Counted from the first letter of the stretch, positions 19,455-32,000 are shown. The stretch: 32,000 nucleotides of DNA from Pseudomonadota bacterium (GCA_023458315.1 JAEXAH010000019.1:1-32000), one strand, 5' to 3'. Numbers and translations: made by a program. Notes: a model not told the origin generated them from the sequence alone.

Positions 19455-20741
19455 ATGGATCAATACATACCGATTATAGATATTGTTATAGCCCTATCGA
19501 GTGCTATAGATTTGATAAACCCAAATATTTCAAATCATCACAAGAGAGTTGCATACATCTCTTATTGTATCGCTAAAGAAATGGGTTATTCAGAAAATGA
19601 GATAAAGGATTTAGTACTGGCCGGATTACTTCATGATTGCGGCGCAGTTAATTTGTTTGAAAGGAGTTCCATATTTGAATTTGAATTTGGTAATTCCAAT
19701 TCCGACAGACACTCCCATGGATATAAAGGTTGGTTTATTCTTCGTGACGCAGTGGAATTAAGGTCTGCTGCCAACATCATAAAATATCACCATGTTTTTT
19801 GGAATGAAATATCTCATAAGCGGTTTCAATCCTGCAAGATACCAGATTTCAGTCATATCCTCCATTTGGCAGACAGAATTGATATACTGATAAACCCTAA
19901 CCAGGAAATCTTGCAGCAGAAAAAATATATAAGTAAAATGATCCTCAAAGGTAAAGGGACAATGTTTATGCCCATGGCAGTCGATGCGTTTGAGAATCTA
20001 GCTTCAAAACCTTATTTTTGGTTTGATATTACCGAAACTTATCTCGAGGATCTGATACGCAAAATAATGTCACCATACAAGGTTTATATTAATAGTGAGT
20101 TTTTAATCCAATACGCAAATATCGCGCACAGAATTATAGATTTTAGAAGTAAATTTACAGCGACCCACTCAATAGGTGTAGCAGCAAGTGCAAGTGCTTT
20201 GGCCTCCAAGCTGGGGTTTTCCGCCTGCGACAGTAGATTGATGCATTCTGCAGGTTTGATGCATGATTTGGGAAAACTGTGTATCCCGGAGAGTATTTTA
20301 GAAAAACCCGGGCCCTTAGACCATTATGAGTTCAGCCTTATGAAAGCACATACATATCATACATACCGGATACTGGATTCAATTCCCGGTTTGGGAAAAG
20401 TACGTGATTGGGCTGCTTTCCACCATGAAAAGCTTGATGGTATGGGTTATCCCTTTGGTCTGGATACAAGAAGTCTTGACCTGGGTTCCAGAATATTGGC
20501 AGTAAGTGACATGTTTACAGCTCTTACTGAAGAAAGACCTTACAGACGTGCCATGTCCCTTAAAGACACGGTTAAGATTATTAATGAAGTAATTTCTCTT
20601 GATTATGATGTAAAGTATTGCTTAAACCAAAATATTGAGGAAATAAATGAGCTAAGACGTACCTCTCAGGAGATTGTTTTCAAAAGCTGTAATGAAATCT
20701 TTCCAGAGTTTGATGAAGAACCTAATCTTCATGCCTTGTAA
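19455..20741 (+). CDS. Tandem HD-domain protein; C-terminal half is a canonical HD-GYP (c-di-GMP phosphodiesterase family)
   Basis: First half has H..LLHDCG and YHHVFW but no GYP. Second half has HSIGV, GLMHDLGK and HHEKLDGMGYP. Confidence 0.8.
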   Translation: MDQYIPIIDIVIALSSAIDLINPNISNHHKRVAYISYCIAKEMGYSENEIKDLVLAGLLHDCGAVNLFERSSIFEFEFGNSNSDRHSHGYKGWFILRDAVELRSAANIIKYHHVFWNEISHKRFQSCKIPDFSHILHLADRIDILINPNQEILQQKKYISKMILKGKGTMFMPMAVDAFENLASKPYFWFDITETYLEDLIRKIMSPYKVYINSEFLIQYANIAHRIIDFRSKFTATHSIGVAASASALASKLGFSACDSRLMHSAGLMHDLGKLCIPESILEKPGPLDHYEFSLMKAHTYHTYRILDSIPGLGKVRDWAAFHHEKLDGMGYPFGLDTRSLDLGSRILAVSDMFTALTEERPYRRAMSLKDTVKIINEVISLDYDVKYCLNQNIEEINELRRTSQEIVFKSCNEIFPEFDEEPNLHAL

Positions 20742-20927: not shown

Positions 20928-21018
20928 GGAGAGATGGCTGAGCTGGTCTAAGGCGCACGACTGGAAATCGTGTGTGGGGTAAAACTCACCGTGGGTTCGA
21001 ATCCCACTCTCTCCGCCA
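20928..21018 (+). tRNA. tRNA-Ser, anticodon GGA, with encoded CCA
   Basis: 7-bp acceptor stem GGAGAGA/TCTCTCC. Anticodon stem CACGA/TCGTG with loop CTGGAAA. Long variable arm (class II tRNA), T-arm GGGTTCGAATCCC, discriminator G plus CCA. Total 91 nt. Confidence 0.9.
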
Positions 21019-21022
21019 AAAT

Positions 21023-21063
21023 AAAGGACTTTGCCGATTAAGGTAAAGTCCTTTTGCTTTTTT
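21023..21063 (+). terminator. Rho-independent terminator after tRNA-Ser
   Basis: 13-bp stem AAAGGACTTTGCC / GGTAAAGTCCTTT (one G-U pair) with a 6-nt loop, running into TTTTGCTTTTTT. Confidence 0.65.
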
Positions 21064-21071
21064 AGCGTATT

Positions 21072-21104
21072 TTATTGTGACATTATTGTGACATTTGTAA
21101 ATTA
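21072..21104. repeat. Exact tandem 11-mer (TTATTGTGACA x2) plus a degenerate third unit
   Basis: TTATTGTGACA occurs at 21072-21082 and 21083-21093, followed by TTTGTAAATTA. It lies directly after the tRNA terminator and overlaps the 3' end of the 61-aa ORF. Confidence 0.8.
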
Positions 21105-21268
21105 TCCATTATTGCTATACAAATACGCTTAAATTTAGGGTTAGTATCAGAGCTGTTTATCAATGATAAAATGCTATTTTTAATGTCGGCATCCTTCCTT
21201 ATCATTTTTTTGTCAAGAATTCCTAAAAGTGCCTTGATGTGTACTTCTAATTCTTCTAGATTACTCAT
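21083..21268 (-). CDS. Hypothetical small protein, 61 aa
   Basis: ATG at 21268 (MSNLEELEVH...) sits behind a GGAGGG SD. The protein looks helical and I recognise no motif. Confidence 0.45.
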   Translation of the reverse strand: MSNLEELEVHIKALLGILDKKMIRKDADIKNSILSLINSSDTNPKFKRICIAIMDNLQMSQ

Positions 21269-21644
21269 TACTATTCCCTCCAAATTTTACCGAACACATG
21301 TTCTTGACCTAAATTATAATATCATTCTGCATTTGTTTCAATACCCCCTTTAGAAATTTTAATGATTTAATTGATTAATTTAATAATATTACTCTCGAAA
21401 ATAAATTTCAATTAACACCATTTGCAACTGGAAGTTGAATTTTGATACTTTAGGACATTAGTACTATAAACTAATTTACATAAATTTAAAAACAATACGT
21501 TTTTTGTCTAAATCTTATCTGTTTTGTAATATAAATGTAATATTTGCTGGAAATTACGATAAGAGTAATTTTATTCATACCAAAGTAGTTAAACCCATAT
21601 AAGCGGTTATGTAGTGCTACAATATTCCATACGGGGGAACATAT

Positions 21645-21863
21645 ATGATCAAAATTTACTTATCCAGAATTCTTGGTGAAAAAAGAATAACCCAAAAGAA
21701 ACTCAGTAAATTAACTGATATACGCCCCGGTACAATAAACGCTTATTATCATGAATATATTCAAAGAATAAATGTTGCAGATCTAAATAAAATATGTAAG
21801 GCTCTTAATTGTAAGTTGTCTGATTTAATAGAATACATGCCTGATGACGATGGTGATAAATAA
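21645..21863 (+). CDS. XRE/Cro-C1-family helix-turn-helix regulator
   Basis: 72 aa. The HTH core ITQKKLSKLTDIRPGTINAYY followed by LNKICKALNCKLSDLIEY is typical of short Cro/CI-type proteins. GGGGGA SD upstream. Confidence 0.8.
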   Translation: MIKIYLSRILGEKRITQKKLSKLTDIRPGTINAYYHEYIQRINVADLNKICKALNCKLSDLIEYMPDDDGDK

Positions 21864-21917
21864 AACATTAATTTAAAAATATTGCATATGGTAAATTAAG
21901 TAATAAAATGTATTTCC

Positions 21918-22910
21918 TTAAGATACAAATTTTCTATGACTTATTTGAACTTCATCCACATTTAGGTCTGCGTATATCTGCGTAGTAGCAGGTGTAGTGT
22001 GTCCTAACATTTTCTGTACAGCTTGAATACTTGCTCCCGCGTTTACTGCTGTTGTAGCTGTTGTGTGTCTTAGCAGGTGCGGATGTACCGATTTAATTAT
22101 GCCTGCCATTGCTCCTAATTGATTAAATACTTTTTGATATCCCCTATGGCTTAAACGATTCATTGGTAATCGCAACCCAACAAAAAGTGCATTATTATTG
22201 TCTTTACGCAAGTCTAAATATCTCCACAAATGTACTTTTGCCCTGGCATTTAAAAAAACCGTTCTTTCTTTATTCCCTTTTCCTATTACATTAACAGAAC
22301 TCCTATTCCAATCGATATCATTTTTATTTAATTTGTACACTTCATCTAGTCGACAACCCGTTGAGTAAAAAAATTCAATCATTGCTTTTTCTCGTTGATT
22401 TCTGCAAGCCAACCTTAACATTTCAAGTTCTTCCTGAGACAGTGCCTTTCTAATTCGCTTTTCTTTTTTAGCCGGCTTTATCTTTCTCATAGGGCTTTTC
22501 ACAATGTAATCTTCCATTTCTAACCACGAGAAAAAGCTTTTCAATATGCTGATTTCTGTATCTAAAGTCGAATTTTTTATACCTGTAGAAGCATATTGAG
22601 CCAGGTATCTTCTTATGTCCATTACAGTAATATCTTCTATTCTTTTTTGTACTATTTTTGAAAATCTAGCTAAATGATGAGAATAGCTTTTTAATGTTTT
22701 TTGAGAAAGACCTTCAAGTTTTTTAGTTGAAATAAATAAAACAATTTTTTCCGGAATCCCTTCAAATGGTATAATAGCATTTTCAACTGGCTGCAGGTCA
22801 TAGTTATAGAGTTCTTCTTCTAAAATTACTTTAAGCTGAACGGCAACTTCCTGAGTAAGGAGATCAACTGCCTTACTCAGGATACGTATAATTACATCTT
22901 CTTTTACCAT
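21918..22910 (-). CDS. int: Tyrosine site-specific recombinase/integrase, XerC/D-like architecture
   Basis: N-terminal SAM-like domain (LSQKTLKSYSHHLARF...DIRRYL). Catalytic residues sit in TGCRLDEV (Arg I), HLLRHTTAT (His-x-x-Arg), LGHTT and TQIYA (Tyr). AGGAGGAG SD upstream. Confidence 0.9.
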   Translation of the reverse strand: MVKEDVIIRILSKAVDLLTQEVAVQLKVILEEELYNYDLQPVENAIIPFEGIPEKIVLFISTKKLEGLSQKTLKSYSHHLARFSKIVQKRIEDITVMDIRRYLAQYASTGIKNSTLDTEISILKSFFSWLEMEDYIVKSPMRKIKPAKKEKRIRKALSQEELEMLRLACRNQREKAMIEFFYSTGCRLDEVYKLNKNDIDWNRSSVNVIGKGNKERTVFLNARAKVHLWRYLDLRKDNNNALFVGLRLPMNRLSHRGYQKVFNQLGAMAGIIKSVHPHLLRHTTATTAVNAGASIQAVQKMLGHTTPATTQIYADLNVDEVQISHRKFVS

Positions 22911-22933
22911 TTATTTACTCCTCCTATTGCACG

Positions 22934-22964
22934 AAGATAAAAGACAAGATATAATTATCTTGTC
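22934..22964 (-). terminator. Terminator-like hairpin inside the recombinase leader
   Basis: Minus strand: GACAAGATA-ATTA-TATCTTGTC (perfect 9-bp stem) followed by TTTTATCTT, ending 24 nt before the int ATG. Confidence 0.5.
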
Positions 22965-23058
22965 CCACTCGTGGGACGCTGTAGGGGGTTGGTGTCTTAT
23001 CTTGCCGGATGTGCACCCATCCCCTTTTTATATGTCCTATATTTTATTTTCAAAATCA

Positions 23059-23087
23059 ATTATATAAGGATAAGCCAAAAAATTCAA
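23059..23087 (-). promoter_or_regulatory. Near-consensus sigma-A promoter upstream of the recombinase leader
   Basis: The minus strand reads TTGAAT (23087-23082), a 17-nt spacer, then TATAAT (23064-23059). Confidence 0.55.
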
Positions 23088-23130
23088 CAATATTTTCATA
23101 TTTTGGATAATAAAACAAGGAACCCCGATG

Positions 23131-23159
23131 AACAAAAATAAAAGCCCCTATTTAGGAGC
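23131..23159 (-). terminator. Terminator ending the FtsK / replication-relaxation operon
   Basis: Minus strand: AGCTCCTA..TAGGGGCT stem followed by TTTTATTTTTG, 40 nt past the stop of the 90-aa ORF. Confidence 0.5.
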
Positions 23160-23199
23160 TATAATGAAATGAATAAAATTAAATTAAAGGGCAATAATA

Positions 23200-23472
23200 T
23201 TATCTGAAACTAGATAAATATAAAACTTTGCATGAAGGTTGCGGAATTGATGGTTCTGCAACCTTCTTTTCATTATAAAAGCCACTATTGCAGCTATACC
23301 AAACCCAACTACCAAACAAGTAACCTAGATAATACCTACCCTTTCCAAATATGTTAATAATAAATGTCTTTTTCTTTTGCTTTTCTTGTCTACGTTTGAG
23401 CCTACGTTTTTGAATCTGTTCACGGTTTTTGATCTCGTTTCCTAATTGTTTTAATAATAAGTTCATTAACAT
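23200..23472 (-). CDS. Hypothetical protein, 90 aa: Lys/Arg-rich N-terminal half, aromatic-hydrophobic segment
   Basis: Strong GGGGAGGAAA SD precedes the ATG at 23472. It is the last gene of the operon and has no recognisable motif. Confidence 0.45.
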   Translation of the reverse strand: MLMNLLLKQLGNEIKNREQIQKRRLKRRQEKQKKKTFIINIFGKGRYYLGYLFGSWVWYSCNSGFYNEKKVAEPSIPQPSCKVLYLSSFR

Positions 23473-23505
23473 AAAAGTTTCCTCCCCTTCGTTATATATT
23501 TGCTT

Positions 23506-23691
23506 TTAAAAAAGCCGAGAGAAAAAATTTAAAATATTACTTATACTTTTGTTTACTGCATCGTCTTTAAATATTGCAGATATATCCATGTTCTTTATAT
23601 AAAACATCAAGGAAACTCCACCAATAGTAAGTAACCATGCAATTTTATTATTCATCTGTTTAGTAGCAGTTGATTCTATTTTATTAGCCAT
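23506..23691 (-). CDS. Small single-pass membrane protein, 61 aa
   Basis: One hydrophobic helix (IAWLLTIGGVSLMFYI). GGGGGA SD upstream; the start is 2 nt after the upstream stop. Confidence 0.45.
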   Translation of the reverse strand: MANKIESTATKQMNNKIAWLLTIGGVSLMFYIKNMDISAIFKDDAVNKSISNILNFFSRLF

Positions 23692-23693
23692 AC

Positions 23694-24266
23694 CTATATC
23701 CCCCTAAACAAGTTTCCAATACCGGATGTAGATTCAATGTTAACCGTCCTGAATTTAATGCCCGTTTTTGTAGGAACTACAACGTTCCTGTCGGTAACTA
23801 TAACTACACGCGGCATTAATTTAAACATGGCTTTTAGATCTGTATTTTTTACAAGGTCCTGGTATTTGTCAAAGTTGAATTTGTTATTTAAGTGGATTTC
23901 TAAAAAACACGGGAAAATAATACCATGATCATTTATATAAGCTAGTGCATCCGGCCGGATACTTTCGATGGGACATTCATTTTCCCATGATTCTACCGTG
24001 TAATATCGGGTTAATAGTACATATATCTGACTACGTATTAAGTCATGGTGTATCTGCACAGGCTTTTTATTGATGTAATAAGCAAAACTACTATCTATAG
24101 TGCTTCTGGTACGCTTAATAAAGCCTTGATTAAATAGATACAATAACCTATTATTGCAATACCTATATGATGCTTTATTGAAAAATATTTGATATATTTG
24201 TTTTGCAGTAGCAATATGGAAGTCTTCAAGAAAATTTAATATAGACTGGTCACGCTTAGTAATCAT
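23694..24266 (-). CDS. Replication-relaxation family protein (Pfam Replic_Relax-like winged helix)
   Basis: N-terminus ITKRDQSILNFLEDFHIATAKQIYQIFF...NNRLLYLFNQGFIKR follows the family pattern (R-D..IL.FL......T..QI..LFF....RRL..L...GLI.R). Its ATG overlaps the FtsK-like stop by 4 nt. Confidence 0.6.
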   Translation of the reverse strand: MITKRDQSILNFLEDFHIATAKQIYQIFFNKASYRYCNNRLLYLFNQGFIKRTRSTIDSSFAYYINKKPVQIHHDLIRSQIYVLLTRYYTVESWENECPIESIRPDALAYINDHGIIFPCFLEIHLNNKFNFDKYQDLVKNTDLKAMFKLMPRVVIVTDRNVVVPTKTGIKFRTVNIESTSGIGNLFRGI

Positions 24267-25546
24267 AGCAGACTCCTTTGATAAGGATTTTTATTATTAA
24301 GCCTAAATTGCTTTATTTTCTCCTGTCGTTCATTTCGCATATCCTCCTTGGTCTTATATGCCTTATGCTCTTTTAGCACCTTCTTGACGTCCTCAGGCTC
24401 GATATAAAGGCACTGTACTTCTTTAAACTCGCCAAGGTATTTCATGAGGCACCTACCTTGGTTTCTAATTTTTTCAGCACCATCAACGTCCAAAATTACC
24501 TCACTGTCTGTAGAAGTAACGGTTTTAAAAGCAATTCTGGTTGGCATGCTGCCTTTAATGGATCCGGATATAATTTTTACGTCAGGACGTTGCATGCTGG
24601 CAACATATAAAATACCAACCTTTCTATCCATTGCCACCCTTGTTCTGAATTTTTCCAATAAAGGCTTATATTCATCTTCTGCCAACCTTGCAAATTCATC
24701 TACTACAATAATTTTGTAGGGTAATGCTCGTTCAGGGTAATATTTATTCCAGACACTTAATTTTTGTATGTAGTGCTTATTTCTAACGCTTGCAAATAGT
24801 TTTAATCGCCTTTCTGATTCTTCTGCCATTTCATCAATCAGTTTTTCAAAGTCTAAAGGTTTTTCACCGTAAGACTTCACCTTTTTGCAGTCCTGGAATA
24901 TACCTAGTTCTACTGCCTGAAAATCAATTAAATGTATATCAATGTTGTGTTGGCTTATTAATAGTGATAAAAGTATTGTCCTCAATAAGCTTGATTTCCC
25001 ACTGTTTGGCTCTCCTGCTACTATTATTTGTGTCGCCTTGTCTATGTCAAAATAAAATTTTCCGTCATTTGTATAACCTATAAATACTTCAGTCGGTTCT
25101 CCACAGTCTTCATATTCATAGTCATATTTAGTTGATAGCTTCAAATGAATACACTTCATGATAAGATTCTTATTAAAACCAAATTCAATCTTGCAATTTA
25201 AGGCTTGTTCTAAGGCGGTTTGTTTGCGCTCAAAATCCTCTTGTGATAGTCCGTTTGGAAGTGATAAAACCAGAGTGGTATAATCATCAGATTTTTGTTC
25301 CTTGATTATTATAGGAGCTTTGTTCTCTTTATTTACTAAACCGCAATTCCGGAATAGATTATCATACACATTAGGTTTAAGTACTTTGTCTAATATTATT
25401 CCACCGCCTACCGTGCAAGCAGAAAAAAGTGCAAATTTACCGTCTGGTATATGCAAATGTCCAAGAGTTAAAGCCTGATTACATATGTACACGCCAAAAG
25501 TAAGTATTGCACTCTGATAAGTGAAATGATATTTATTTAATTCCAT
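24263..25546 (-). CDS. FtsK/SpoIIIE-family DNA translocase with N-terminal membrane anchor
   Basis: Two N-terminal hydrophobic segments, Walker A GEPNSGKSS, Walker B KIIVVDEFARL, downstream QRP motif (ASMQRPD). Start set at 25546 (MELNKY) behind AGGTGGTGGA. Confidence 0.8.
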   Translation of the reverse strand: MELNKYHFTYQSAILTFGVYICNQALTLGHLHIPDGKFALFSACTVGGGIILDKVLKPNVYDNLFRNCGLVNKENKAPIIIKEQKSDDYTTLVLSLPNGLSQEDFERKQTALEQALNCKIEFGFNKNLIMKCIHLKLSTKYDYEYEDCGEPTEVFIGYTNDGKFYFDIDKATQIIVAGEPNSGKSSLLRTILLSLLISQHNIDIHLIDFQAVELGIFQDCKKVKSYGEKPLDFEKLIDEMAEESERRLKLFASVRNKHYIQKLSVWNKYYPERALPYKIIVVDEFARLAEDEYKPLLEKFRTRVAMDRKVGILYVASMQRPDVKIISGSIKGSMPTRIAFKTVTSTDSEVILDVDGAEKIRNQGRCLMKYLGEFKEVQCLYIEPEDVKKVLKEHKAYKTKEDMRNERQEKIKQFRLNNKNPYQRSLL

Positions 25547-25653
25547 ATAATATTCCACCACCTATTCCAAATATAGTTCCTTAGTGTATCCTATAATAGA
25601 TTGTCTTAGGTGGCTTAAACACTCATAAAATCGGCATTTTTAAAAAAGCAAGT

Positions 25654-25707
25654 GGAGCGAGCGACCGAAGGGAGAGAGGGAACGAGGGACCGCCCGACCC
25701 GGGGCCG
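25654..25707. repeat. T-free GC-rich island with three 8-nt-phased AGGGA units
   Basis: 54 nt with no T on the plus strand and 41/54 G+C, inside AT-rich DNA. AGGGA occurs at 25669-73, 25677-81 and 25685-89 (8-mers CGAAGGGA, GAGAGGGA, ACGAGGGA). It is bracketed by an 8-bp inverted repeat: AAATCGGC at 25628-35 and GCCGATTT at 25704-11. Confidence 0.85.
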
Positions 25708-25709
25708 AT

Positions 25710-25892
25710 TTAGAAGGAAAATAGACTGGGATTATTATCATTTGCACTTTTACCAATGCTTTCCTGTTTTTGATTTCTTTTCATATCGTCAATAATTAAC
25801 TGTTTTATATATACAGATTCGCTTAGTTGTGATTTAACATGTTCGTATAACGCCTGTTCATCTCTTTTAAAACTAACACCTATCTTTGCCAT
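25710..25892 (-). CDS. ParR-like small DNA-binding protein (ribbon-helix-helix-like N-terminus)
   Basis: 60 aa. N-terminus MAKIGVSFKRDEQALYEHV has the beta-strand then helix pattern of RHH/ParR adaptors. It overlaps the ParM-like stop by 13 nt, the classic parM-parR order. Confidence 0.45.
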   Translation of the reverse strand: MAKIGVSFKRDEQALYEHVKSQLSESVYIKQLIIDDMKRNQKQESIGKSANDNNPSLFSF

Positions 25893-26695
25893 ATCTGTTC
25901 ACCAACCTCTCTAAAAGCTTTTGCGTTCGCAAAAATGCAATCATTATGTAGTATTGCCCCTGGGATTCGTTTAAGCAGCGGCTCAGATAGTAGTTGAGAA
26001 CCTCCGCCGACCAATACAACACTTTTTGACCGCAAAGAGTATTCAATATTTAAGGTGTTTACAAGTTGCTCTACAAAGCTTTTAAACGTTTCTGCAGCAA
26101 ACCGTATATCTGTACTTACTCCGTCTATGATCAGCCCGTTTTTAATAATCTCCTGAGCATCTTCGACTTTTAAATCAAGGCAAAATCTGCTGTTTAATGC
26201 CTTTATAAATTCACTGTAGAGATTAAATGTGCCGGTCGGCAGGCTGATAGGGTTTTCAATTTTCTTTTGACAGTTAATATTCCGTATCAATGCACAGTCA
26301 GTTGTTCTGCCGCCTATGTCAATAACTATCCCGGAGTCTATTGTCCCTATTCCCTCGGGGTATACCTCTACACCAATGACGTTCTTGATTTTTAAGTTGA
26401 GTAACTTTTCACGAAAAGCAGTGCAATCCTGTTGGTATTGTAAAATCGGAAGACCTACTACAACTCTTAGCGGTTCATAAAACAGAGATGTTAAATAAGC
26501 AAATATAATTTCTGTGTTCTTTTTATTGACCTTACGATATTCAGTTTCGTAATTGCCATCACCTATGTAATAAGTTTTGTCCTGGAATATAAACCCTTTT
26601 TGGTTTAAAAGTTGCCTTTTTGACACCTTTGATTCAAATGTGAGCCCTGTTGATAATTTTGTTGTACAATTGCCTATATCTACACCAAGAACCAT
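25880..26695 (-). CDS. parM: ParM/StbA-like actin-fold plasmid segregation ATPase
   Basis: Actin-fold motifs are present: phosphate-1 GVDIGNCTTK, phosphate-2 VIDIGGRTTD, adenosine VLVGGGSQL. At 271 aa it is short for ParM. Confidence 0.7.
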   Translation of the reverse strand: MVLGVDIGNCTTKLSTGLTFESKVSKRQLLNQKGFIFQDKTYYIGDGNYETEYRKVNKKNTEIIFAYLTSLFYEPLRVVVGLPILQYQQDCTAFREKLLNLKIKNVIGVEVYPEGIGTIDSGIVIDIGGRTTDCALIRNINCQKKIENPISLPTGTFNLYSEFIKALNSRFCLDLKVEDAQEIIKNGLIIDGVSTDIRFAAETFKSFVEQLVNTLNIEYSLRSKSVVLVGGGSQLLSEPLLKRIPGAILHNDCIFANAKAFREVGEQIWQR

Positions 26696-26787
26696 AAGTC
26701 TTTTAGCTCCTTTTTTATACTCTTGATATATTTATATTCAAATTGGTATAAAAATTGCCTGTCCAGTAAAAAAAGATTTCTAAATAA

Positions 26788-26817
26788 ACAAAAAAATCCC
26801 TAGTTAATCAACTAGGG
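26788..26817 (-). terminator. Terminator overlapping the 3' end of the XRE gene
   Basis: CCCTAGTT / AACTAGGG 8-bp stem (26798-26817), followed on the minus strand by ATTTTTTTG. Confidence 0.6.
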
Positions 26818-27004
26818 AAAATATATCTTTAACATCTTTGTTAAGTTTATATGCTATTTTTAAGGCTATTTCTAGGGATGGATATCCGGTATTGTTTTCG
26901 TATCTATTATATTGGCTTATAGATATATCCAATAATTCAGAAAATTCCGTCTGGTTCATTGCGTATTCACGCATACGGATATCTTTAAGTTTGTTTTTTA
27001 TCAT
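26804..27004 (-). CDS. XRE-family helix-turn-helix regulator, 66 aa
   Basis: HTH_3-type core MNQTEFSELLDISISQYNRYENN...PSLEIALKIAYKL. Confidence 0.8.
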   Translation of the reverse strand: MIKNKLKDIRMREYAMNQTEFSELLDISISQYNRYENNTGYPSLEIALKIAYKLNKDVKDIFSLVD

Positions 27005-27073
27005 AAAATCACCTTTGATATAATATTAAACATTTCCCCTTAATGTCCTTTAAGGAAAATAAAAAAATCTTTC

Positions 27074-27113
27074 AAAGGTTTCTCCCTGAGGGCTACAGTC
27101 TACTCCTAATCCG
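27074..27113. repeat. Direct repeat copy A (degenerate copy of the holin-gene 3' end and terminator)
   Basis: CAAAGGTTTCTCCCTGAGGGCTACAGTCTACTCCTAATCC aligns with 27654-27694. The core TTTCTCC[C/T]TGAGGG[C/T]TACAGTCTA matches at 22 of 24 positions. Confidence 0.7.
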
Positions 27114-27204
27114 AAAATACAAATATAATTACCTTCCATTGATAATTGCAAAATTAAATAATATAATGTTATCAAACATATGTTCTATAACAGGAGGATT
27201 ATAT

Positions 27205-27501
27205 ATGCCATTTGGGTTTGAACCAAGGGAAATAGACAATCGTAAAGAAACTGCAATTTATGAACAATTACTTGACAACAAGACATTTCTTGAGGTTACT
27301 GCTATGATGTGTACTAACAAGGCTGTTATACCCCTATCTTTTAAATGGGATTATAGAGAAATTAAAATTGAAAGAGTTATTAATATCCAGGATGGCAAAT
27401 CCCTAAAGGATGGATTCCTGGGGAAAAGATATTTATGTCAGGCTAAAGGTAAAAGATTTTATTTGTATTTTACCGGTAAACAGTGGTATATGAATCTTTG
27501 A
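27205..27501 (+). CDS. Hypothetical protein, 98 aa (accessory, moron-like gene)
   Basis: The internal ATG at 27205 (MPFGFEPREID...) sits 7 nt behind an AGGAGG SD. The track's upstream 54 codons have no SD and cross a terminator-like repeat. It is the only plus-strand gene in this stretch and has no recognisable motif. Confidence 0.55.
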   Translation: MPFGFEPREIDNRKETAIYEQLLDNKTFLEVTAMMCTNKAVIPLSFKWDYREIKIERVINIQDGKSLKDGFLGKRYLCQAKGKRFYLYFTGKQWYMNL

Positions 27502-27509
27502 AATTGGGA

Positions 27510-27550
27510 TTGTATTATTTTGTAATATATTGTATAATTTCTGTAACATT
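27510..27550 (+). repeat. Four helically phased short repeats ([T/C]TGTA at 27510, 27520, 27530, 27541)
   Basis: Units are TTGTATTATT, TTGTAATATA, TTGTATAATT and CTGTAACATT, spaced 10, 10 and 11 nt. The array also reads as TTGTAT, 17 nt, TATAAT. Confidence 0.65.
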
Positions 27551-27595
27551 TCAATTTTCAAATCTAAATTGAAATTTCTTGACTTTACACGAAAG

Positions 27596-27616
27596 GCGGG
27601 CGAAAGCCCGTTTTTT
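27596..27616 (+). terminator. Rho-independent terminator (GNRA-loop hairpin)
   Basis: GCGGGC-GAAA-GCCCGT followed by TTTTT. Confidence 0.65.
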
Positions 27617-27640
27617 GTATGTTTTAATTATTGCAATTTA

Positions 27641-27674
27641 AAAAAATAAGCCCCCAAGGATTTCTCCTTGAGGG
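27641..27674 (-). terminator. Terminator after the lysis cassette
   Basis: Minus strand: CCCTCAAGGA-GAAA-TCCTTGGGG stem (one bulge) followed by CTTATTTTTT, starting 8 nt past the holin stop. Confidence 0.6.
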
Positions 27675-27694
27675 TTACAGTCTATTTCAAATCT
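27654..27694. repeat. Direct repeat copy B (functional holin 3' end and terminator)
   Basis: See copy A at 27074-27113. Confidence 0.7.
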
Positions 27695-28023
27695 GGAGGT
27701 TTTATTGAATTATTTACAATGCCATCGTCCAGGCTGTCCTTTATCTTGTCAAACCATTCCTGTAGTTTTTGCTCTAAAATGCTACGTGGTATAAAAAATC
27801 TTAGCCAAGCTGGTACTAGATTGTAAAGTTGTGTTAGTACAATATCGAATCTTTCCTGCCCCTTCTTCGTTCCTGTAACAGCTTTTTCAGCCTGACGAAT
27901 AAGAATATAAGCCAATTCCCGTAGCTTTGCCCAACGGCGTTTTACGATTAAATAGGATATGTAACCGGCAAAACCAATACAAAATAAAATAACAAGCCAA
28001 TTGTTTATAAAAAAGTCTTTCAT
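27682..28023 (-). CDS. Phage holin candidate, LL-H-like (single N-terminal TM)
   Basis: 113 aa. It has an N-terminal TM (WLVILFCIGFAGYISYLIV) then a charged helical tail including AEKAVTGTKKGQERF, resembling LL-H-family holins. Its ATG shares one base with the endolysin stop (TAATG). Confidence 0.5.
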   Translation of the reverse strand: MKDFFINNWLVILFCIGFAGYISYLIVKRRWAKLRELAYILIRQAEKAVTGTKKGQERFDIVLTQLYNLVPAWLRFFIPRSILEQKLQEWFDKIKDSLDDGIVNNSIKPPDLK

Positions 28024-28742
28024 TATAACCTACCTCCCATTCTGTTAACAATGTTCATGATAAATCTATCAAAGTATTTTAGTGTTTTAATCACTCCAAT
28101 CCACACACCCGGTTTGGTTTGAGTTGCTCTTATAACTTCCTCTGCAGTTTTAAAATTATTGTCTAAAATCTCCTGGCAACACTGCAGTACTTCCTTTGCC
28201 TTTTCTTTTGTTTTAGTCCCGACAACTCCATCTGGGGTTAATCCTGTCATTGCCTGAAATTCTTTTACATACATATTGTCACCAGTTCCTTTCAATAAGC
28301 TGTCCCTAATGTCGATTTTCTGTGCTTCGCTGATTCCTTGATGTTCCAACAACTGTACATGCCACGGTTCATAGTCTATTGGTTTTATTAAGCCGTACTT
28401 TTTTAATTCGGCATTTGTAAGAGCATTAAACCAAGGATCTGTTATATCCATAGCTATACAAAAACAGTGATTACTTTTACCGTATGCTCCCGCCCAACAC
28501 TTACCGTCAGGTGTATAAACAGCACCATATCTTTTATCATTTGGGTCTGTTATTTGATATGCCCCTTGGTTTTTTCTCTGTGCCAACGATTGAGCATTTA
28601 CAAGTTTTTGTTTTGCTGGGCTTCTGTATCCGGATGTACAAAGACAATCTTTTTTGTGTACCTTACATAGTGTATTTACCGCATCTATAAGTTTCTGGTA
28701 TACACAGGCTTCATCCTGATATTTAAACTTTACTTGGGACAT
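28023..28742 (-). CDS. Endolysin: M15B/VanY-type peptidase plus C-terminal peptidoglycan-binding domain
   Basis: SGYRSPAKQ, SNHCFCIAMD and EPWH are the VanY/M15 zinc-peptidase motifs. C-terminal FQAMTGLTPDGVVGTKTKEK is a PG_binding_1-type repeat. Confidence 0.85.
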   Translation of the reverse strand: MSQVKFKYQDEACVYQKLIDAVNTLCKVHKKDCLCTSGYRSPAKQKLVNAQSLAQRKNQGAYQITDPNDKRYGAVYTPDGKCWAGAYGKSNHCFCIAMDITDPWFNALTNAELKKYGLIKPIDYEPWHVQLLEHQGISEAQKIDIRDSLLKGTGDNMYVKEFQAMTGLTPDGVVGTKTKEKAKEVLQCCQEILDNNFKTAEEVIRATQTKPGVWIGVIKTLKYFDRFIMNIVNRMGGRL

Positions 28743-29031
28743 CCTTTACCATCTCCTCTCTTATTTCATTAATTCTATGGTGTGCTTGTTTTGTGGATTC
28801 CTCTACACGGGCCAGTCGGTCTGCATGATTGCTTACCGTATTATTAAGGCATCTTATTTCAAGCAACGTAGTATCACTGCTACGTTTTATATAGTCAATA
28901 TCTGCTCTTAATTGTCCGGATTCAATACCGCTTTGTTTTGATTCTCCTTTTACCCGTGACTGCATAGCCAGGTACCCAAACACAACACCACCGATTGCCG
29001 CTGCGCAAGTAATTAAAGTGTTTATTCCCAT
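28723..29031 (-). CDS. Phage membrane-anchored coiled-coil protein (BhlA/XhlA-like, lysis-associated)
   Basis: N-terminal TM (LITCAAAIGGVVFGYLAM) then a heptad-like helix (HADRLARVEESTKQAHHRINEIREE). It overlaps the endolysin start by 20 nt. Confidence 0.4.
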   Translation of the reverse strand: MGINTLITCAAAIGGVVFGYLAMQSRVKGESKQSGIESGQLRADIDYIKRSSDTTLLEIRCLNNTVSNHADRLARVEESTKQAHHRINEIREEMVKDVPSKV

Positions 29032-29051
29032 TTAGCAACCCTTCTTTCAAT

Positions 29052-29090
29052 TTAAAATAAAAAGGACTACCCATTTCTGAGTAATCCTTT
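29052..29090 (-). terminator. Hairpin plus U-tract between tail and lysis modules
   Basis: Minus strand: AAAGGATTAC / GTAGTCCTTT (9 of 10 bp) followed by TTATTTTAA. There is no room for a promoter before the next gene, so it is probably leaky. Confidence 0.45.
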
Positions 29091-29115
29091 TGGTTCGTGA
29101 TATTATCCTATTATG

Positions 29116-29286
29116 TTATGTAGGACTAGGATTCTGATCTGGTATATCAACAATCAAATCCTGTCTACCTTCTGCGATTAAAATCATATCTACATCATTT
29201 TTGTATGGTTTAAAATACGCAGACGAAAATATTGTGTAATAATCCAAAGTACCTGCCATAAGCCTTTTTGCCATATAAATAGCCAT
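29116..29286 (-). CDS. Small phage protein, 56 aa (below the ORF-track cutoff)
   Basis: ATG at 29286 overlaps the upstream TAA (TAATG) and follows a GGAGGTG SD. Translation is MAIYMAKRLMAGTLDYYTIFSSAYFKPYKNDVDMILIAEGRQDLIVDIPDQNPSPT. Its position after the tail fibre is like the small XkdX-type genes. Confidence 0.5.
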   Translation of the reverse strand: MAIYMAKRLMAGTLDYYTIFSSAYFKPYKNDVDMILIAEGRQDLIVDIPDQNPSPT

Positions 29287-29615
29287 TATATAACACCTCC
29301 TCTCAGAGCATCATTAATAGTACTAATATCTGTACCACTCTGAGCTATTATTGTTAATAACAAGTCAACTACTTGTGACATGTTCTCAATATAAGTCTGC
29401 ATTTGTATGTTTTGTTCTTGAAGCTTCTCTAATTCTGTTTTAGGTATATCTTCAAAAATGGGTAAAGGCTTAGTACCCATCATATCAAAGTTCTTAATAC
29501 GCTTTCCATCAGGTACTTGTACTAAGAGAGAACCTGCTGGTTCCTCAATATCTGAGCCAGAATTTTGAGCTAAGACATTGCCTGACCATCCAAAAGTTGC
29601 TAAAACTGTCCTCAT
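29286..29615 (-). CDS. Phage hypothetical protein, 109 aa, downstream of the tail fibre
   Basis: ORF in the co-oriented tail module with an AAAGGAG SD. It has a helical C-terminus and no motif I recognise. Confidence 0.5.
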   Translation of the reverse strand: MRTVLATFGWSGNVLAQNSGSDIEEPAGSLLVQVPDGKRIKNFDMMGTKPLPIFEDIPKTELEKLQEQNIQMQTYIENMSQVVDLLLTIIAQSGTDISTINDALRGGVI

Positions 29616-29638
29616 ATATTTATCACACTCCTTTTAAT

Positions 29639-30949
29639 TTATTCAAATGCCCAATAAGTAAACGTGGCACTAAGAAGAAAACTTTTAAATTCAAATGTTC
29701 CAAAAGCAACACCCGAAATATAATAGCTATTTTGTGCGCCCATCACTTGACCACCAAAATCTCCCCTGGTGTATATTCCGTTAGTGGCTTGTGTCCTACC
29801 CCCGCTAATGGGGTATAACATACTGTTGCTTTGATAATTCGTGTTAACAAAATATTCTACAACCCCATCCTTAGCCACCATTACTACTATAGTTTTTGGT
29901 ATAAATCCAATACCACTAACAACAGTAGCAGCATTTTGAGTTCCGGCTGTAGTCCCCGTGCCTGTTGCCCATTTTTTTTTAGTACTTGTACCTACTTTTA
30001 AACCATCTTCCGTTCCAAATATGACTCCTTTGTCTACATTGCTCTCAACAATATTTCCATAATCCCCCCCTTCACCCAAGCACTGAAAATTTTCTCCATC
30101 CCGAATAAACGAATAAGTTCCTGCTTTTGGCTTAAAATCTGACCCTCCTGGTCTAGTTAATCTTCCTGGTGTACCATCAGATGATATGGTTAATGTGGAT
30201 GTGCCTGTTGCGGCTGCGTTAAATTTAACACTAAATTTAGACCCGTCAGATATATTTTTCGAGCTTGTTATGCTATACGCATTATCCACATTACTTGTAA
30301 TTCCAAGATGGGGTACATGGTTCGTATAATCGGACTTATGAATATTTATTTGATTTAGTATATTCCCAGCCACATCACCGCTTAATATATTTTGCACCTG
30401 GCTAAACCAGCCATTAAAGGCTGCATCATATTGGTAGAAAAGGCCTGTAGTATCTATTTGTTCCACAACTCCTGACACTATGCCACACAAGGCAGCATTA
30501 TAACGTAAATCTGTTATCTGTGTCTGATTAACTCCTGTATCACCATTATTTATGAGTATGTCAGCTATCCCAAGCTCATAGTTATCAGCACTCCTTGTTA
30601 GTATGGGAGCCACCGGAGAACTTGCAGGCGTACCTTTCAAAACTGATAAAACGATTTGCCTGTTTAAGTGATCTAGTCTCAATACAATCCTGTCAATTCT
30701 CTTCAATACTCCATCAGCCTCATCTATTGAAATATTGAGCGTACCAGTATTTTCATAGTAATAGCCGTTTATCCATGCTTTTCCTGCAGCGACTGATATA
30801 TTCATTCCACCTGCAACTGTCACGGCTAAATTGTTACCCGGATTTGGATATACTCCGTTTCCGATAAAGCTCCCGAAATATGCGGCATAATCTGATGCAT
30901 TGTATTTTCTATCTCCATTTACGCTGTTGAAAAAGCTGCTTTTCTGCAT
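29639..30949 (-). CDS. Phage tail fibre / receptor-binding-type protein
   Basis: N-terminus MQKSSFFNSVNGDRKYNASDYAAYFGSFIGNGVYPNP is a conserved head seen in Firmicute prophage tail-fibre proteins. The middle is rich in Gly, Thr and Ser. It lies directly after the Gp37-like gene. Confidence 0.6.
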   Translation of the reverse strand: MQKSSFFNSVNGDRKYNASDYAAYFGSFIGNGVYPNPGNNLAVTVAGGMNISVAAGKAWINGYYYENTGTLNISIDEADGVLKRIDRIVLRLDHLNRQIVLSVLKGTPASSPVAPILTRSADNYELGIADILINNGDTGVNQTQITDLRYNAALCGIVSGVVEQIDTTGLFYQYDAAFNGWFSQVQNILSGDVAGNILNQINIHKSDYTNHVPHLGITSNVDNAYSITSSKNISDGSKFSVKFNAAATGTSTLTISSDGTPGRLTRPGGSDFKPKAGTYSFIRDGENFQCLGEGGDYGNIVESNVDKGVIFGTEDGLKVGTSTKKKWATGTGTTAGTQNAATVVSGIGFIPKTIVVMVAKDGVVEYFVNTNYQSNSMLYPISGGRTQATNGIYTRGDFGGQVMGAQNSYYISGVAFGTFEFKSFLLSATFTYWAFE

Positions 30950-30952
30950 TGT

Positions 30953-31987
30953 TTATTCCCCCTTCAAAATATCCTTCAATTCCGGAAGTGGACTCCCGAA
31001 AGTAGGTGTTAGTGTTATGATACCGTTTTCATATACTTCCTCAATTTCGGCTATTCGAACATCAATGACTTTGTTCCAATCTCGTTTTCTACAGGTAACA
31101 ATATCTCCAAGATCAAAATCATTTTTATATACCAAACTTGATTGGAGATTTACATTGCTTTCAAAAGTCTCATTTTTAACTGCCTGGGCCAAAGCTTCAT
31201 TACCCCGCTGGATTAACAATGCTTTGTATTCGTTATCCGTCAAATCACCTCTTTGTATATCTTTGGCATCAACGAATAACTCACGTCTTTTAAGACCTGT
31301 TGCATCTCCTACTGTAGCAATTATCCTCGATGTCCCTTCTCCTTCACCGCCCACTACTGCAACCGTCTTATAATTTTCAGTTTCAAGAGAATATTTACTG
31401 TCAGTTGCATTTTCAAACTCTTCAGAGAAGATCACCCTTGGATATGCGTTCTGAGCTGCACTTCGGTCAATTCCCCGATAACATTCAAACAAAAGATTTT
31501 TATTTTTTCTGTCAAATCTAACCCCGTATCCGATATTGCTTACCTGGGCGATTTTAGTTAATGTAGTACATACATTTTTATAAGTTACCTGCAAATCAAC
31601 TGGTTCTGTATAGTTCTTTACTTCTCCCAGTTCCAGAAACGGTATTGGATTCATATTACTTATAATTGTCCTCATGGCAAGTTCAGCAGTGGTATTCAAC
31701 ACGGTTTCGATCATTACAATCCGCCGTTCAGTGAGGGATGATAAAAACCGTCCTCTTACCGTAAAATCATCTTTATCTATACTGATTCCCTCAATTATCC
31801 CGGCTTCATTCGCATCCCGCCGGGCAATTATATTGTCCTCTTCAAGTAGCTTCATATTCTCAGCGGTGTACTTTAAATGAAGTTCAAATTCTCCGGGCTG
31901 AAAATACCTTCTCCTCCACCTCAGGCTGTCAAACACATCTATAAGCCCAATTAAATCAAGGCTTTTGTTATATATGTAAAGTTCCAT
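30953..31987 (-). CDS. Siphovirus Gp37-like (ReqiPepy6 Gp37 family) tail/baseplate protein
   Basis: N-terminus MELYIYNKSLDLIGLIDVFDSLRWRRRYFQPGEFELHL matches the family pattern (I.D......G.I....SL.W.RRY...G.FEL). Confidence 0.65.
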   Translation of the reverse strand: MELYIYNKSLDLIGLIDVFDSLRWRRRYFQPGEFELHLKYTAENMKLLEEDNIIARRDANEAGIIEGISIDKDDFTVRGRFLSSLTERRIVMIETVLNTTAELAMRTIISNMNPIPFLELGEVKNYTEPVDLQVTYKNVCTTLTKIAQVSNIGYGVRFDRKNKNLLFECYRGIDRSAAQNAYPRVIFSEEFENATDSKYSLETENYKTVAVVGGEGEGTSRIIATVGDATGLKRRELFVDAKDIQRGDLTDNEYKALLIQRGNEALAQAVKNETFESNVNLQSSLVYKNDFDLGDIVTCRKRDWNKVIDVRIAEIEEVYENGIITLTPTFGSPLPELKDILKGE

Positions 31988-32000
31988 ATCACACCCCCAG

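Follow-up and report, generated by a model that had tools for sequence, protein, structure and literature searches.

A plasmid-type maintenance cassette in the recombinase-proximal arm of a probable siphovirus prophage at a tRNA-Ser(GGA) insertion hot spot

We analysed positions 21019–32000 of a 32,000-nt stretch of bacterial DNA (JAEXAH010000019.1; the whole stretch is called the window here), and this segment probably belongs to a single temperate siphovirus prophage at a tRNA-Ser(GGA) hot spot, of which it would be the arm nearest the recombinase gene. Read along the minus strand, the arm would run from late genes (tape measure, Dit, Gp37-like, fibre and lysis) through one moron into a 4.4-kb cassette of plasmid-type maintenance genes and, past the cassette, to a Xer-like recombinase gene that appears to have its own promoter and to a small divergent regulator pair at the junction. 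The cassette would consist of an XRE regulator, parM, a parR-like gene, a conserved cis element, a TcpA/FtsK-like ATPase, a Replic_Relax protein with a predicted winged helix-turn-helix (wHTH)-nuclease architecture and two small proteins. Every gene listed in a preliminary description of this DNA was recovered in place by domain, PHROG and tRNA searches; its labels ‘transfer module’ and ‘parR’ belong to genes that are present, and are themselves interpretation and not observation. On sequence comparison, the layout, in which tail and lysis genes stand together with ParM, FtsK-like and recombinase genes, recurs in phages of Firmicutes and is not a new kind of element; ordinary as it is, it shows how modules are exchanged between phage-plasmid and integrative lifestyles.

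The host chromosome is, judging from its genes, Ruminiclostridium or Ruminiclostridium-like: an HD-GYP protein encoded at 19455–20741 shared 100% identity with its counterpart in a Bacillota metagenome-assembled genome (MAG) and 94% with the one in R. papyrosolvens C7. The left junction is the 3' end of tRNA-Ser(GGA) (20928–21018, plus strand; the sole tRNA found by ARAGORN, also matched by the Rfam tRNA model), and in alignments the identity to related genomes stopped exactly there. Related genomes were compared at this tRNA, as the preliminary description had proposed for defining the insert: six of them matched through the final base of the tRNA, and each then entered different DNA. Alignments of this kind mark tRNA-Ser(GGA) as a hot spot for insertions in the Ruminiclostridium-type clade. 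Islands at this locus in four related genomes were flanked by a second direct copy of the 3' part of the tRNA, 58–76 nt long (window 20961–21024; L007 11503–11566 and 18772–18835; L017 14792–14849; L018 16633–16696; L015 14031–14101; L-numbered labels denote related loci throughout), and these repeat-bounded islands measured 2.4–7.2 kb. A terminator-like hairpin located by sequence scan directly after the tRNA (21023–21054, plus strand) was assigned to the inserted DNA because the hairpin at that spot differs in each related genome.

The segment is physically continuous with chromosomal genes, and the flanking genes were 100% identical to those of a MAG that lacks the phage. Three assemblies agreed in junction and gene order, namely ERZ27269283 (351-kb contig), ERZ28596715 (620-kb scaffold) and a Logan contig, and in the sampled genome the phage is integrated. 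It is highly improbable that a free phage-plasmid was misjoined to the chromosome at the tRNA during assembly. The 351-kb source contig does break within phage tail genes, 1.7 kb past the end of the window, and the Logan contig stops 28 nt inside the tRNA, but such breaks are expected at a repeated or strain-variable tRNA end, and the same junction was present in the 351-kb and 620-kb scaffolds of different assemblies as well as in the Logan contig. The 620-kb scaffold runs on into the tape-measure gene. The preliminary description had offered a phage-plasmid that can also integrate as one of two explanations for the segment, and this came close to the best explanation, a phage with plasmid-type maintenance genes in the integrated state. 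The part that did not hold, as far as assemblies can show, was extrachromosomal lysogeny, as the element was joined to the chromosome in all three of them.

The other explanation had been a small integrative element (about 21.0–27.7 kb) in tandem with a prophage. A second copy of the tRNA-Ser 3' end, the repeat by which such an element might have been delimited, was found nowhere in the window, even with mismatches allowed, and no other convincing direct repeat was found between 21.0 and 32.0 kb. Because no copy of the tRNA 3' end separates 21.0–27.7 kb from the phage genes, the segment was read as part of a single prophage, and the insertion exceeds 11 kb and extends past the window end. Searching IMG/VR with the tRNA 3' end as an exact pattern retrieved more than 120 unrelated contigs and was uninformative, as that sequence is widely conserved. 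Megablast of 21019–32000 against phage records gave no match; thus, the phage has no close cultured relative.

The cassette could be followed through its ATPase gene, which had 76 close homologues (46–67% identity), many of them on 35–48-kb contigs, and which in a tblastn search matched 287 phage records, mostly from Bacillus. For a local scoring of gene content we drew 23 loci from IMG/VR, from JGI metagenomes and from other assemblies. Replic_Relax directly followed ftsK in all 21 loci having downstream sequence. ParM lay just upstream of the ftsK-like gene in nine loci, with ParA in that slot in one (L293), and a recombinase gene lay within a few kb in 16 (tyrosine type in 13; large serine type in the L290 group), so that both partition and recombinase types were swapped between loci. 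The full combination of ParM, tyrosine recombinase, FtsK-like protein and Replic_Relax was present in seven loci besides the window, and lysis or tail genes adjoined the cassette in seven lineages. The cassette was bracketed by phage genes in L006, the L290 group, L293 and L311: endolysin, holin and tail genes converged on one side, and integrase, XRE, antirepressor, Mom, methylase or RecT genes lay on the other. A holin-domain open reading frame (ORF) stood on the lysis/tail side in L005, and L004 and the window shared the co-linear arrangement. Phage genes on both sides of the cassette in four clostridial lineages, placing it between lysis and lysogeny/early genes in independent relatives, argue against a separate small element in the window.

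The IMG/VR and metagenome loci L004, L005, L006, L290/L300, L293, L302, L305, L306, L308, L311 and L312 represent an uncultured clostridial phage lineage that shares with the window the ftsK-like gene (50–66% identity), Replic_Relax, the small ORFs and the cis element with its AAAAAGCAAGT core. ParM and ParR were upstream in most of them, a recombinase gene was nearby, and lysis or tail genes were adjacent where the flanks were long enough. They varied in partition type (ParM, ParA or none), in recombinase (Xer-like, other tyrosine or large serine) and in the orientation of the cis element, and a literature search found none of the uncultured clostridial cassette loci described. In L293, a ParA-type ATPase and a 101-aa protein (8000–9054) occupied the ParM/ParR slot, followed by ~950 bp of non-coding DNA before ftsK; L293 may be a true phage-plasmid because no recombinase was seen within 10 kb.

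L299 is a phage arm with an 80%-identical recombinase, and relative to it the window carries the whole cassette as an insertion, with the accessory gene on one side, the int unit on the other and no ends of its own, a difference that in this comparison is ordinary modular mosaicism within one phage arm and that again disfavours a tandem element. L004, the relative in R. papyrosolvens and with a 95%-identical recombinase, has kept parR and the last ~8 codons of parM (9640–9820) and has otherwise lost parM by deletion, an apparent loss that fits partition decay in an integrated descendant and agrees with reports on P1-like phage-plasmids turned integrative prophages (PMC10879196).

The preliminary description had called the architecture unusual, and comparison with known phages contradicts this. 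BtCS33 and phiCM3, gamma-like/Camtrevirus phages of the Bacillus cereus group whose genomes were sequenced from phage particles, have the same order of tail, holin/endolysin, HTH, small ORF, FtsK-like, Replic_Relax and integrase genes, and an FtsK-like gene and Replic_Relax after the lysis genes with an integrase gene adjacent are standard in phages of this type; W-beta, gamma and Fah are further gamma-like siphoviruses of the Bacillus cereus group in the literature. Their ATPase was homologous to that of the window (27% identity, E 1e-33) although it lacks the first ~68 residues, and their Replic_Relax was 20% identical with the PD...E core invariant. Unlike the window, BtCS33 and phiCM3 have no ParM/ParR, their integrase gene faces the opposite way and its product is of another family (24% identity), and their host is of a different class. 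Gamma-like Bacillus phages are temperate with a chromosomal prophage state, and the window element is likewise integrated. The presence of the cassette within packaged Bacillus phage genomes is a further argument against a separate integrative element.

The partition genes have a parallel in plasmid prophages. Phages phiSM101 and vB_CpeS-1181 (Clostridium), pCD5401_3 (Clostridioides) and IEBH and B83 (Bacillus) have ParM followed by a small protein between the lysis and the lysogeny/replication modules, as in the window; pCD5401_3 also has a short XRE gene upstream of parM, and B83-type phages also have Xer-family recombinases. ParM with a small adaptor after the lysis genes is thus standard in clostridial and Bacillus plasmid prophages, and ParM, a ribbon-helix-helix (RHH) adaptor and a Xer-type recombinase have been described as a hallmark of the Bacillus ones (PMC8026635). 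Their ParM proteins were only 24–31% identical to that of the window, the three Clostridium/Clostridioides records examined had no FtsK-like/Replic_Relax pair near parM, and phiSM101 is a circular record and the Bacillus phages IEBH and B83 replicate as plasmids, whereas the window element is joined to the chromosome. Phage-plasmids are known to become integrative prophages without giving up their partition genes (P1-like cases; PMC10879196), and, together with the recurrence of the full four-gene combination, such documented integrated derivatives leave little of the claim of an unusual architecture. The P1-like derivatives are likewise chromosomal phages that still encode plasmid partition (and replication) genes, but they belong to an unrelated phage group in other hosts, have another partition type and lack the FtsK-like/Replic_Relax pair.

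A case for two tandem elements, in which a small integrative mobilisable element (IME) comprising the recombinase, a MOBC-like relaxase, a TcpA-like coupling protein and ParMR would sit at tRNA-Ser and abut an unrelated prophage, comes from the homologies of the ATPase and of Replic_Relax. The best solved-structure match of the ATPase was the conjugative coupling protein TcpA of plasmid pCW3 (residues 69–390 aligned, E 6e-23, compared with E 5e-17 for FtsK), Replic_Relax (PF13814) belongs to the MOBC relaxase superfamily (PMC5357655), and tcpA lies directly upstream of the relaxase gene in IMEs (PMC5357655). The window resembles the Firmicutes IMEs with TcpA and a relaxase (PMC5357655) in its tyrosine recombinase, in a TcpA-like ATPase gene directly upstream of a gene of a nuclease/relaxase family and in its insertion beside conserved genes, and all three expected domains were present (Xer-like recombinase, PF13814 and TcpA-like ATPase). 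In the same survey TcpA was never paired with MOBC/PF13814 relaxases (PMC5357655). The unit of the window differs from IMEs in lying inside a phage arm without ends of its own, with no repeat that could bound it between 21.0 and 32.0 kb and with phage genes around it in relatives. Two terminator-like hairpins, set back to back (27589–27674, both strands; sequence scan), separate the lysis genes from the accessory gene and could mark a boundary, and some relatives carry the cassette away from virion genes, as set out below. On balance we consider two tandem elements quite unlikely.

Several observations weigh against a single tRNA-integrated prophage with a plasmid-type cassette. The right end, with the right attachment site (attR), head, packaging and early genes, would lie outside the sequence seen (the head, packaging and early genes beyond coordinate 256,777 of the 620-kb scaffold), and the prophage is only presumed complete. 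In L294/L303 and L295, three loci that represent two kinds of context, neither virion nor lysis genes could be recognised within 10 kb; therefore, the cassette also occurs outside recognisable phages. A search of 26680–27060 for parC-like iterons found none. The recombinase, finally, may not be the tRNA-Ser integrase: its 95%, 80% and 78% identical homologues had no tRNA within 10 kb, with homology ending at the stop codon, and other islands at tRNA-Ser(GGA) employ a 374-aa integrase of a different family, encoded in one of them directly after the tRNA (L008 11661–12785; degraded in L007). L294/L303 and L295 may be non-phage carriers of the cassette. In L294 (1–9000) and L303 (750–6900), the cassette lies beside PhoH/PIN, a 700–890-aa protein and an IS605-family TnpB, and in L295 (1–9700) it is at the end of an element with AAA_25/DnaB-like and HTH_17 proteins.

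The recombinase (21918–22910, minus strand; 330 aa) matched Phage_integrase (E 2.5e-36) and had a SAM_1 N-terminal domain. It scored 234.9 bits against NCBIfam NF040815 (XerA-type; cut-off 220) and fell below the cut-offs of the XerC and XerD equivalog models. The catalytic residues R187, H278-x-x-R281, H304 and Y313 were legible in the sequence, so that the SAM-like N-domain, the R..H-x-x-R..H..Y catalytic domain and the model score all place the enzyme in the Xer type. The family is large and uniform (1664 proteins at E < 1e-60, nearly all 329–330 aa). Upstream of the gene (22911–23090, minus strand) were a promoter-like site, TTGAAT-17-TATAAT, and a conserved ~150-nt leader with a terminator-like hairpin (22966–22941). 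The preliminary description had called this leader structured; it was indeed conserved in relatives, but its predicted fold was not significantly better than those of shuffled sequences (z = -1.57). DNA homology to three relatives was confined to the promoter, leader and int (window 23050 to 21908) and stopped within 10 nt of the stop codon. The homologues at 95%, 80% and 78% identity each stood at the end of a tail-plus-lysis cluster, L004/L211 had no copy of the tRNA-Ser end and none of the 11-nt repeats found near the junction (see below), and across the four contexts no shared att core or motif was seen 3' of the recombinase gene. The gene moves as a 1.1-kb unit (window 21908–23050; L004 12091–13663; L297 9881–10997; L299 9863–11001). 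Different DNA follows this unit in its relatives. Directly 3' of the 95%-identical recombinase gene in L004 (13770–15990) is an agr-like cassette, which may be phage cargo or host DNA and which has an ORF of 44 aa resembling a peptide precursor together with genes for a GHKL histidine kinase and a LytTR response regulator, and large Tc-toxin-like genes (SpvB/TcdB/RHS and TcA-like; L299 12095–20993) directly follow the 80%-identical recombinase gene at the end of a siphophage arm.

We infer integration at tRNA-Ser by the Xer-like enzyme because of its position alone, 0.9 kb from the junction. A possible, if less favoured, alternative keeps the single prophage and assigns to this enzyme the resolution of multimers or another site-specific reaction of the episome, with a different integrase at the unseen end or with the 0.9 kb between tRNA and int as the remnant of an older island. 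The match to a XerA-type model agrees with such a role, and dimer resolution has been suggested for the Xer-type enzymes of Bacillus plasmid prophages (PMC8026635). In its favour, too, close homologues never adjoin a tRNA and homology halts at the stop codon, and the tRNA-Ser hot spot is otherwise served by the 374-aa integrase with its 58–64-nt repeats. The enzyme is nevertheless the sole recombinase within 11 kb of the junction and lies 0.9 kb from the tRNA end, the usual placement of an integrase, and the DNA adjacent to the tRNA carries a phage-type XRE regulator. In our judgement the Xer-like enzyme is rather likely a tRNA-Ser integrase and less likely a resolvase of the circular form, and it might be both.

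The operon at the heart of the cassette encodes the ATPase (24263–25561, minus strand; 432 aa; FtsK_SpoIIIE PF01580 E 2e-12; PHROG 1358 E 4e-65) and Replic_Relax (23694–24266, minus strand; PF13814 E 9e-7, above the Pfam cut-off), followed by two small ORFs (90 aa and 61 aa; 23200–23691, minus strand), which accompany ftsK/Replic_Relax in relatives, and by a terminator-like hairpin closing the operon (23143–23160, minus strand; sequence scan). The public gene call for the ATPase begins at an ATG five codons inside (427 aa). Alignment identified Walker A (GEPNSGKSS) and Walker B (IIVVDEF) motifs. This motor domain is common to chromosomal FtsK/SpoIIIE, whose gamma domain and long multi-pass membrane N-terminus are absent from the ATPase: it matched neither Ftsk_gamma (PF09397) nor FtsK_4TM, whereas true FtsK proteins in the same search had both. 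Membrane anchoring of the ATPase was unsupported, with no 19-residue segment reaching a mean Kyte-Doolittle hydropathy of 1.6, and PADLOC, searched for defence functions, returned generic FtsK-domain matches only.

Replic_Relax of PF13814 has been described as a wHTH fused to a predicted PD-(D/E)XK nuclease (PMC3424549). In the window protein the Pfam alignment covers the N-terminal wHTH part only, and a PD-(D/E)XK-like core is predicted to follow: H74, P105-D106 and E123 were invariant across an alignment of ten homologues, all of which matched PF13814 and which included two Bacillus phage proteins at 20% identity, with the residue after E-x being H or Q and not K. No solved structural relatives of Replic_Relax were found. 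The ‘conjugation-style translocase’ of the preliminary description was borne out in part: the TcpA best match and the MOBC superfamily give the wording a sequence basis, which is one of homology and not evidence of transfer.

Next to the operon lies a conserved non-coding element (25590–25709, plus strand) that adjoins ftsK and includes a 65-nt G+C-rich tract (25645–25709), the ‘GC island’ of the preliminary description, which was confirmed as real and conserved in relatives. The element consists of a TTGTCT..17..CATWWW block (CATAAA in the window), the almost invariant AAAAAGCAAGT and a purine/G-rich tract of 40–60 nt. The core AAAAAGCAAGT, exact or with one difference, lay at most 250 nt upstream of ftsK in 17 loci (element coordinates: L293 9868–10003; L294 9806–9960; L295 9852–10003; L006 5046–5140; L005 9716–9860; L290 9936–10090; L004 9806–9990, reverse complement), and across loci the element was linked to ftsK and not to parM. 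It was directed toward ftsK in 15 of the 17 loci and inverted only in the window and L004, and its orientation was constant in three assemblies of the phage and in L004. In our reading the inversion is fixed in a single sub-lineage and is not a switch. A recombinase-driven invertible promoter switch was rejected, as neither the window nor L004 had convincing inverted repeats on the flanks. The GC island was likewise rejected as a structured RNA or a terminator, its fold being no better than shuffles (z = +1.43), with no Rfam match. The element is, by inference from its sequence and position, the best candidate site for the action of Replic_Relax.

These features also bear on what the pair might do. 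It is unlikely that the FtsK/TcpA-like protein, Replic_Relax and the cis element form a DNA-transfer device, working through a co-resident conjugation pore or by pumping DNA into the forespore, and not a maintenance unit. The TcpA-like and MOBC-like homologies would suit transfer, the conserved non-coding element directly upstream of the operon is in the expected place of an oriT, many of the hosts are spore-forming Firmicutes, and the Bacillus phage homologues have been suggested in the literature to act in DNA translocation or in sporulation. Set against this, neither genes of a type IV secretion system nor a relaxase activity have been shown, and Replic_Relax homologues in phage records are labelled ‘replication initiation protein’, a label given on homology alone. 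Partition genes usually accompanied the unit (ParM or ParA in ten loci), and this frequent coupling argues more for episomal maintenance.

A bolder proposal, to which we give a low probability, is that the TcpA/FtsK-like ATPase, the MOBC-like Replic_Relax and the AAAAAGCAAGT/purine-rich element might be a self-contained unit with which temperate phages of Firmicutes move or keep their genome without virions, and that this may happen by conjugative mobilisation of the excised phage through a helper pore or by delivery of an episome to the forespore. If such a virion-free DNA-processing unit exists, these phages would be a phage/IME hybrid class, of which the window lineage would be a variant with a flipped cis element. 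The FtsK-like/Replic_Relax pair is widespread in phages of Bacillus and Clostridia and homologous to a coupling protein and a relaxase family, and the loci collected here supply a defined cis element and a natural inversion variant for probing its role.

The partition genes lie on the other side of the cis element. The predicted ParM/actin-like protein (ALP) partition ATPase (25880–26695, minus strand) matched MreB-like_C (E 8e-11) and ALP_N (E 1e-6), both above the Pfam cut-offs, and PHROG 691 ‘partition protein’ (E 1e-34); its nearest solved structures were the Clostridium botulinum ParMs 7x3h and 7x54 (E about 1.5e-6). A 60-aa candidate ParR-like protein is encoded at 25710–25892 (minus strand), overlapping the parM stop. 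The label reflects its position, its match to PHROG 4223 (E 1e-12) and an RHH-like sequence pattern; it had no Pfam or PDB match, and homologues come after parM in six other loci. With ParM and the ParR-like ORF 1 kb from the lysis genes, phage structural genes and a partition system are on one element. The cassette is headed by a second XRE regulator (26804–27004, minus strand), homologues of which are equally placed in L005, L295, L302, L306 and L308, and its proteins all belong to phage protein families (PHROGs 1358, 9996/2190, 4223, 691 and 1). Just outside it, in the opposite orientation, is the moron-like accessory ORF (27043–27501, plus strand; 152 aa), which had no homology in Pfam, PHROGs, NCBIfam or PADLOC; homologues occur in L299, close to the recombinase gene, and in L005, close to the cassette.

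Taken together, a mechanism can be proposed. In the circular phage genome the cassette would lie between the lysis and lysogeny/early modules, as in relatives. After infection or excision, the circular genome would persist temporarily as an episome, copies of which would be segregated by ParM filaments joined to them via the ParR-like adaptor. Replic_Relax may bind or nick the cis element, and the FtsK/TcpA-like motor may work on that DNA during replication start, resolution or translocation; the Xer-like recombinase would resolve multimers and/or integrate the genome. The cassette presumably still works in the sampled prophage.

The remaining part of the segment encodes the late functions, with tail genes and a lysis cassette within one late-gene block, as in siphoviruses. 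From the window end inward on the minus strand, a Sipho_Gp37-like distal tail protein (30953–31987; E 4.5e-95), with Dit and tape-measure genes next to it just past the window, is followed by a 436-aa tail fibre/receptor-binding protein (29639–30949; PHROG 1220 E 5e-85) and by two small conserved phage ORFs identified by PHROG search (56 aa and 109 aa; 29116–29615). In the lysis cassette (27682–29031, minus strand), an endolysin of the VanY/PG_binding type (domain match; 28023–28742) is encoded between two proteins that by hydropathy each have one strong hydrophobic segment, of 102 aa (28723–29031) and 113 aa (27682–28023). The endolysin shared 75% identity with its counterpart in an R. josui tail cluster. 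Compact sheath/tube/baseplate clusters without capsid genes (L297 6239–6922; L209–L211) have in common with the window the endolysin, at 57–75% identity, and the fibre's C-terminal part, at up to 68%. These capsid-less, tailocin-like clusters are conserved across Ruminiclostridium and have related clusters in C. difficile.

At the junction, two tandem 11-nt direct repeats, ATTGTGACATT (21074–21095, plus strand), have a similar pair at the equivalent position in L007 and L008 and are a candidate binding site for the recombinase or an accessory protein. A 66-aa ORF without homologues (21083–21283, minus strand) is divergent from the gene for an XRE/Cro-CI-type regulator (21645–21863, plus strand; HTH_26 E 1e-18; PHROG 3 ‘transcriptional repressor’), which is convergent with the recombinase gene, and the AT-rich region of 360 bp between the two contained two strong (11/12) promoter-like sites. 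The pair (21083–21863) resembles a CI/Cro-type switch at the junction, and a leftward transcript from this region would cross the attachment site in the circular form.

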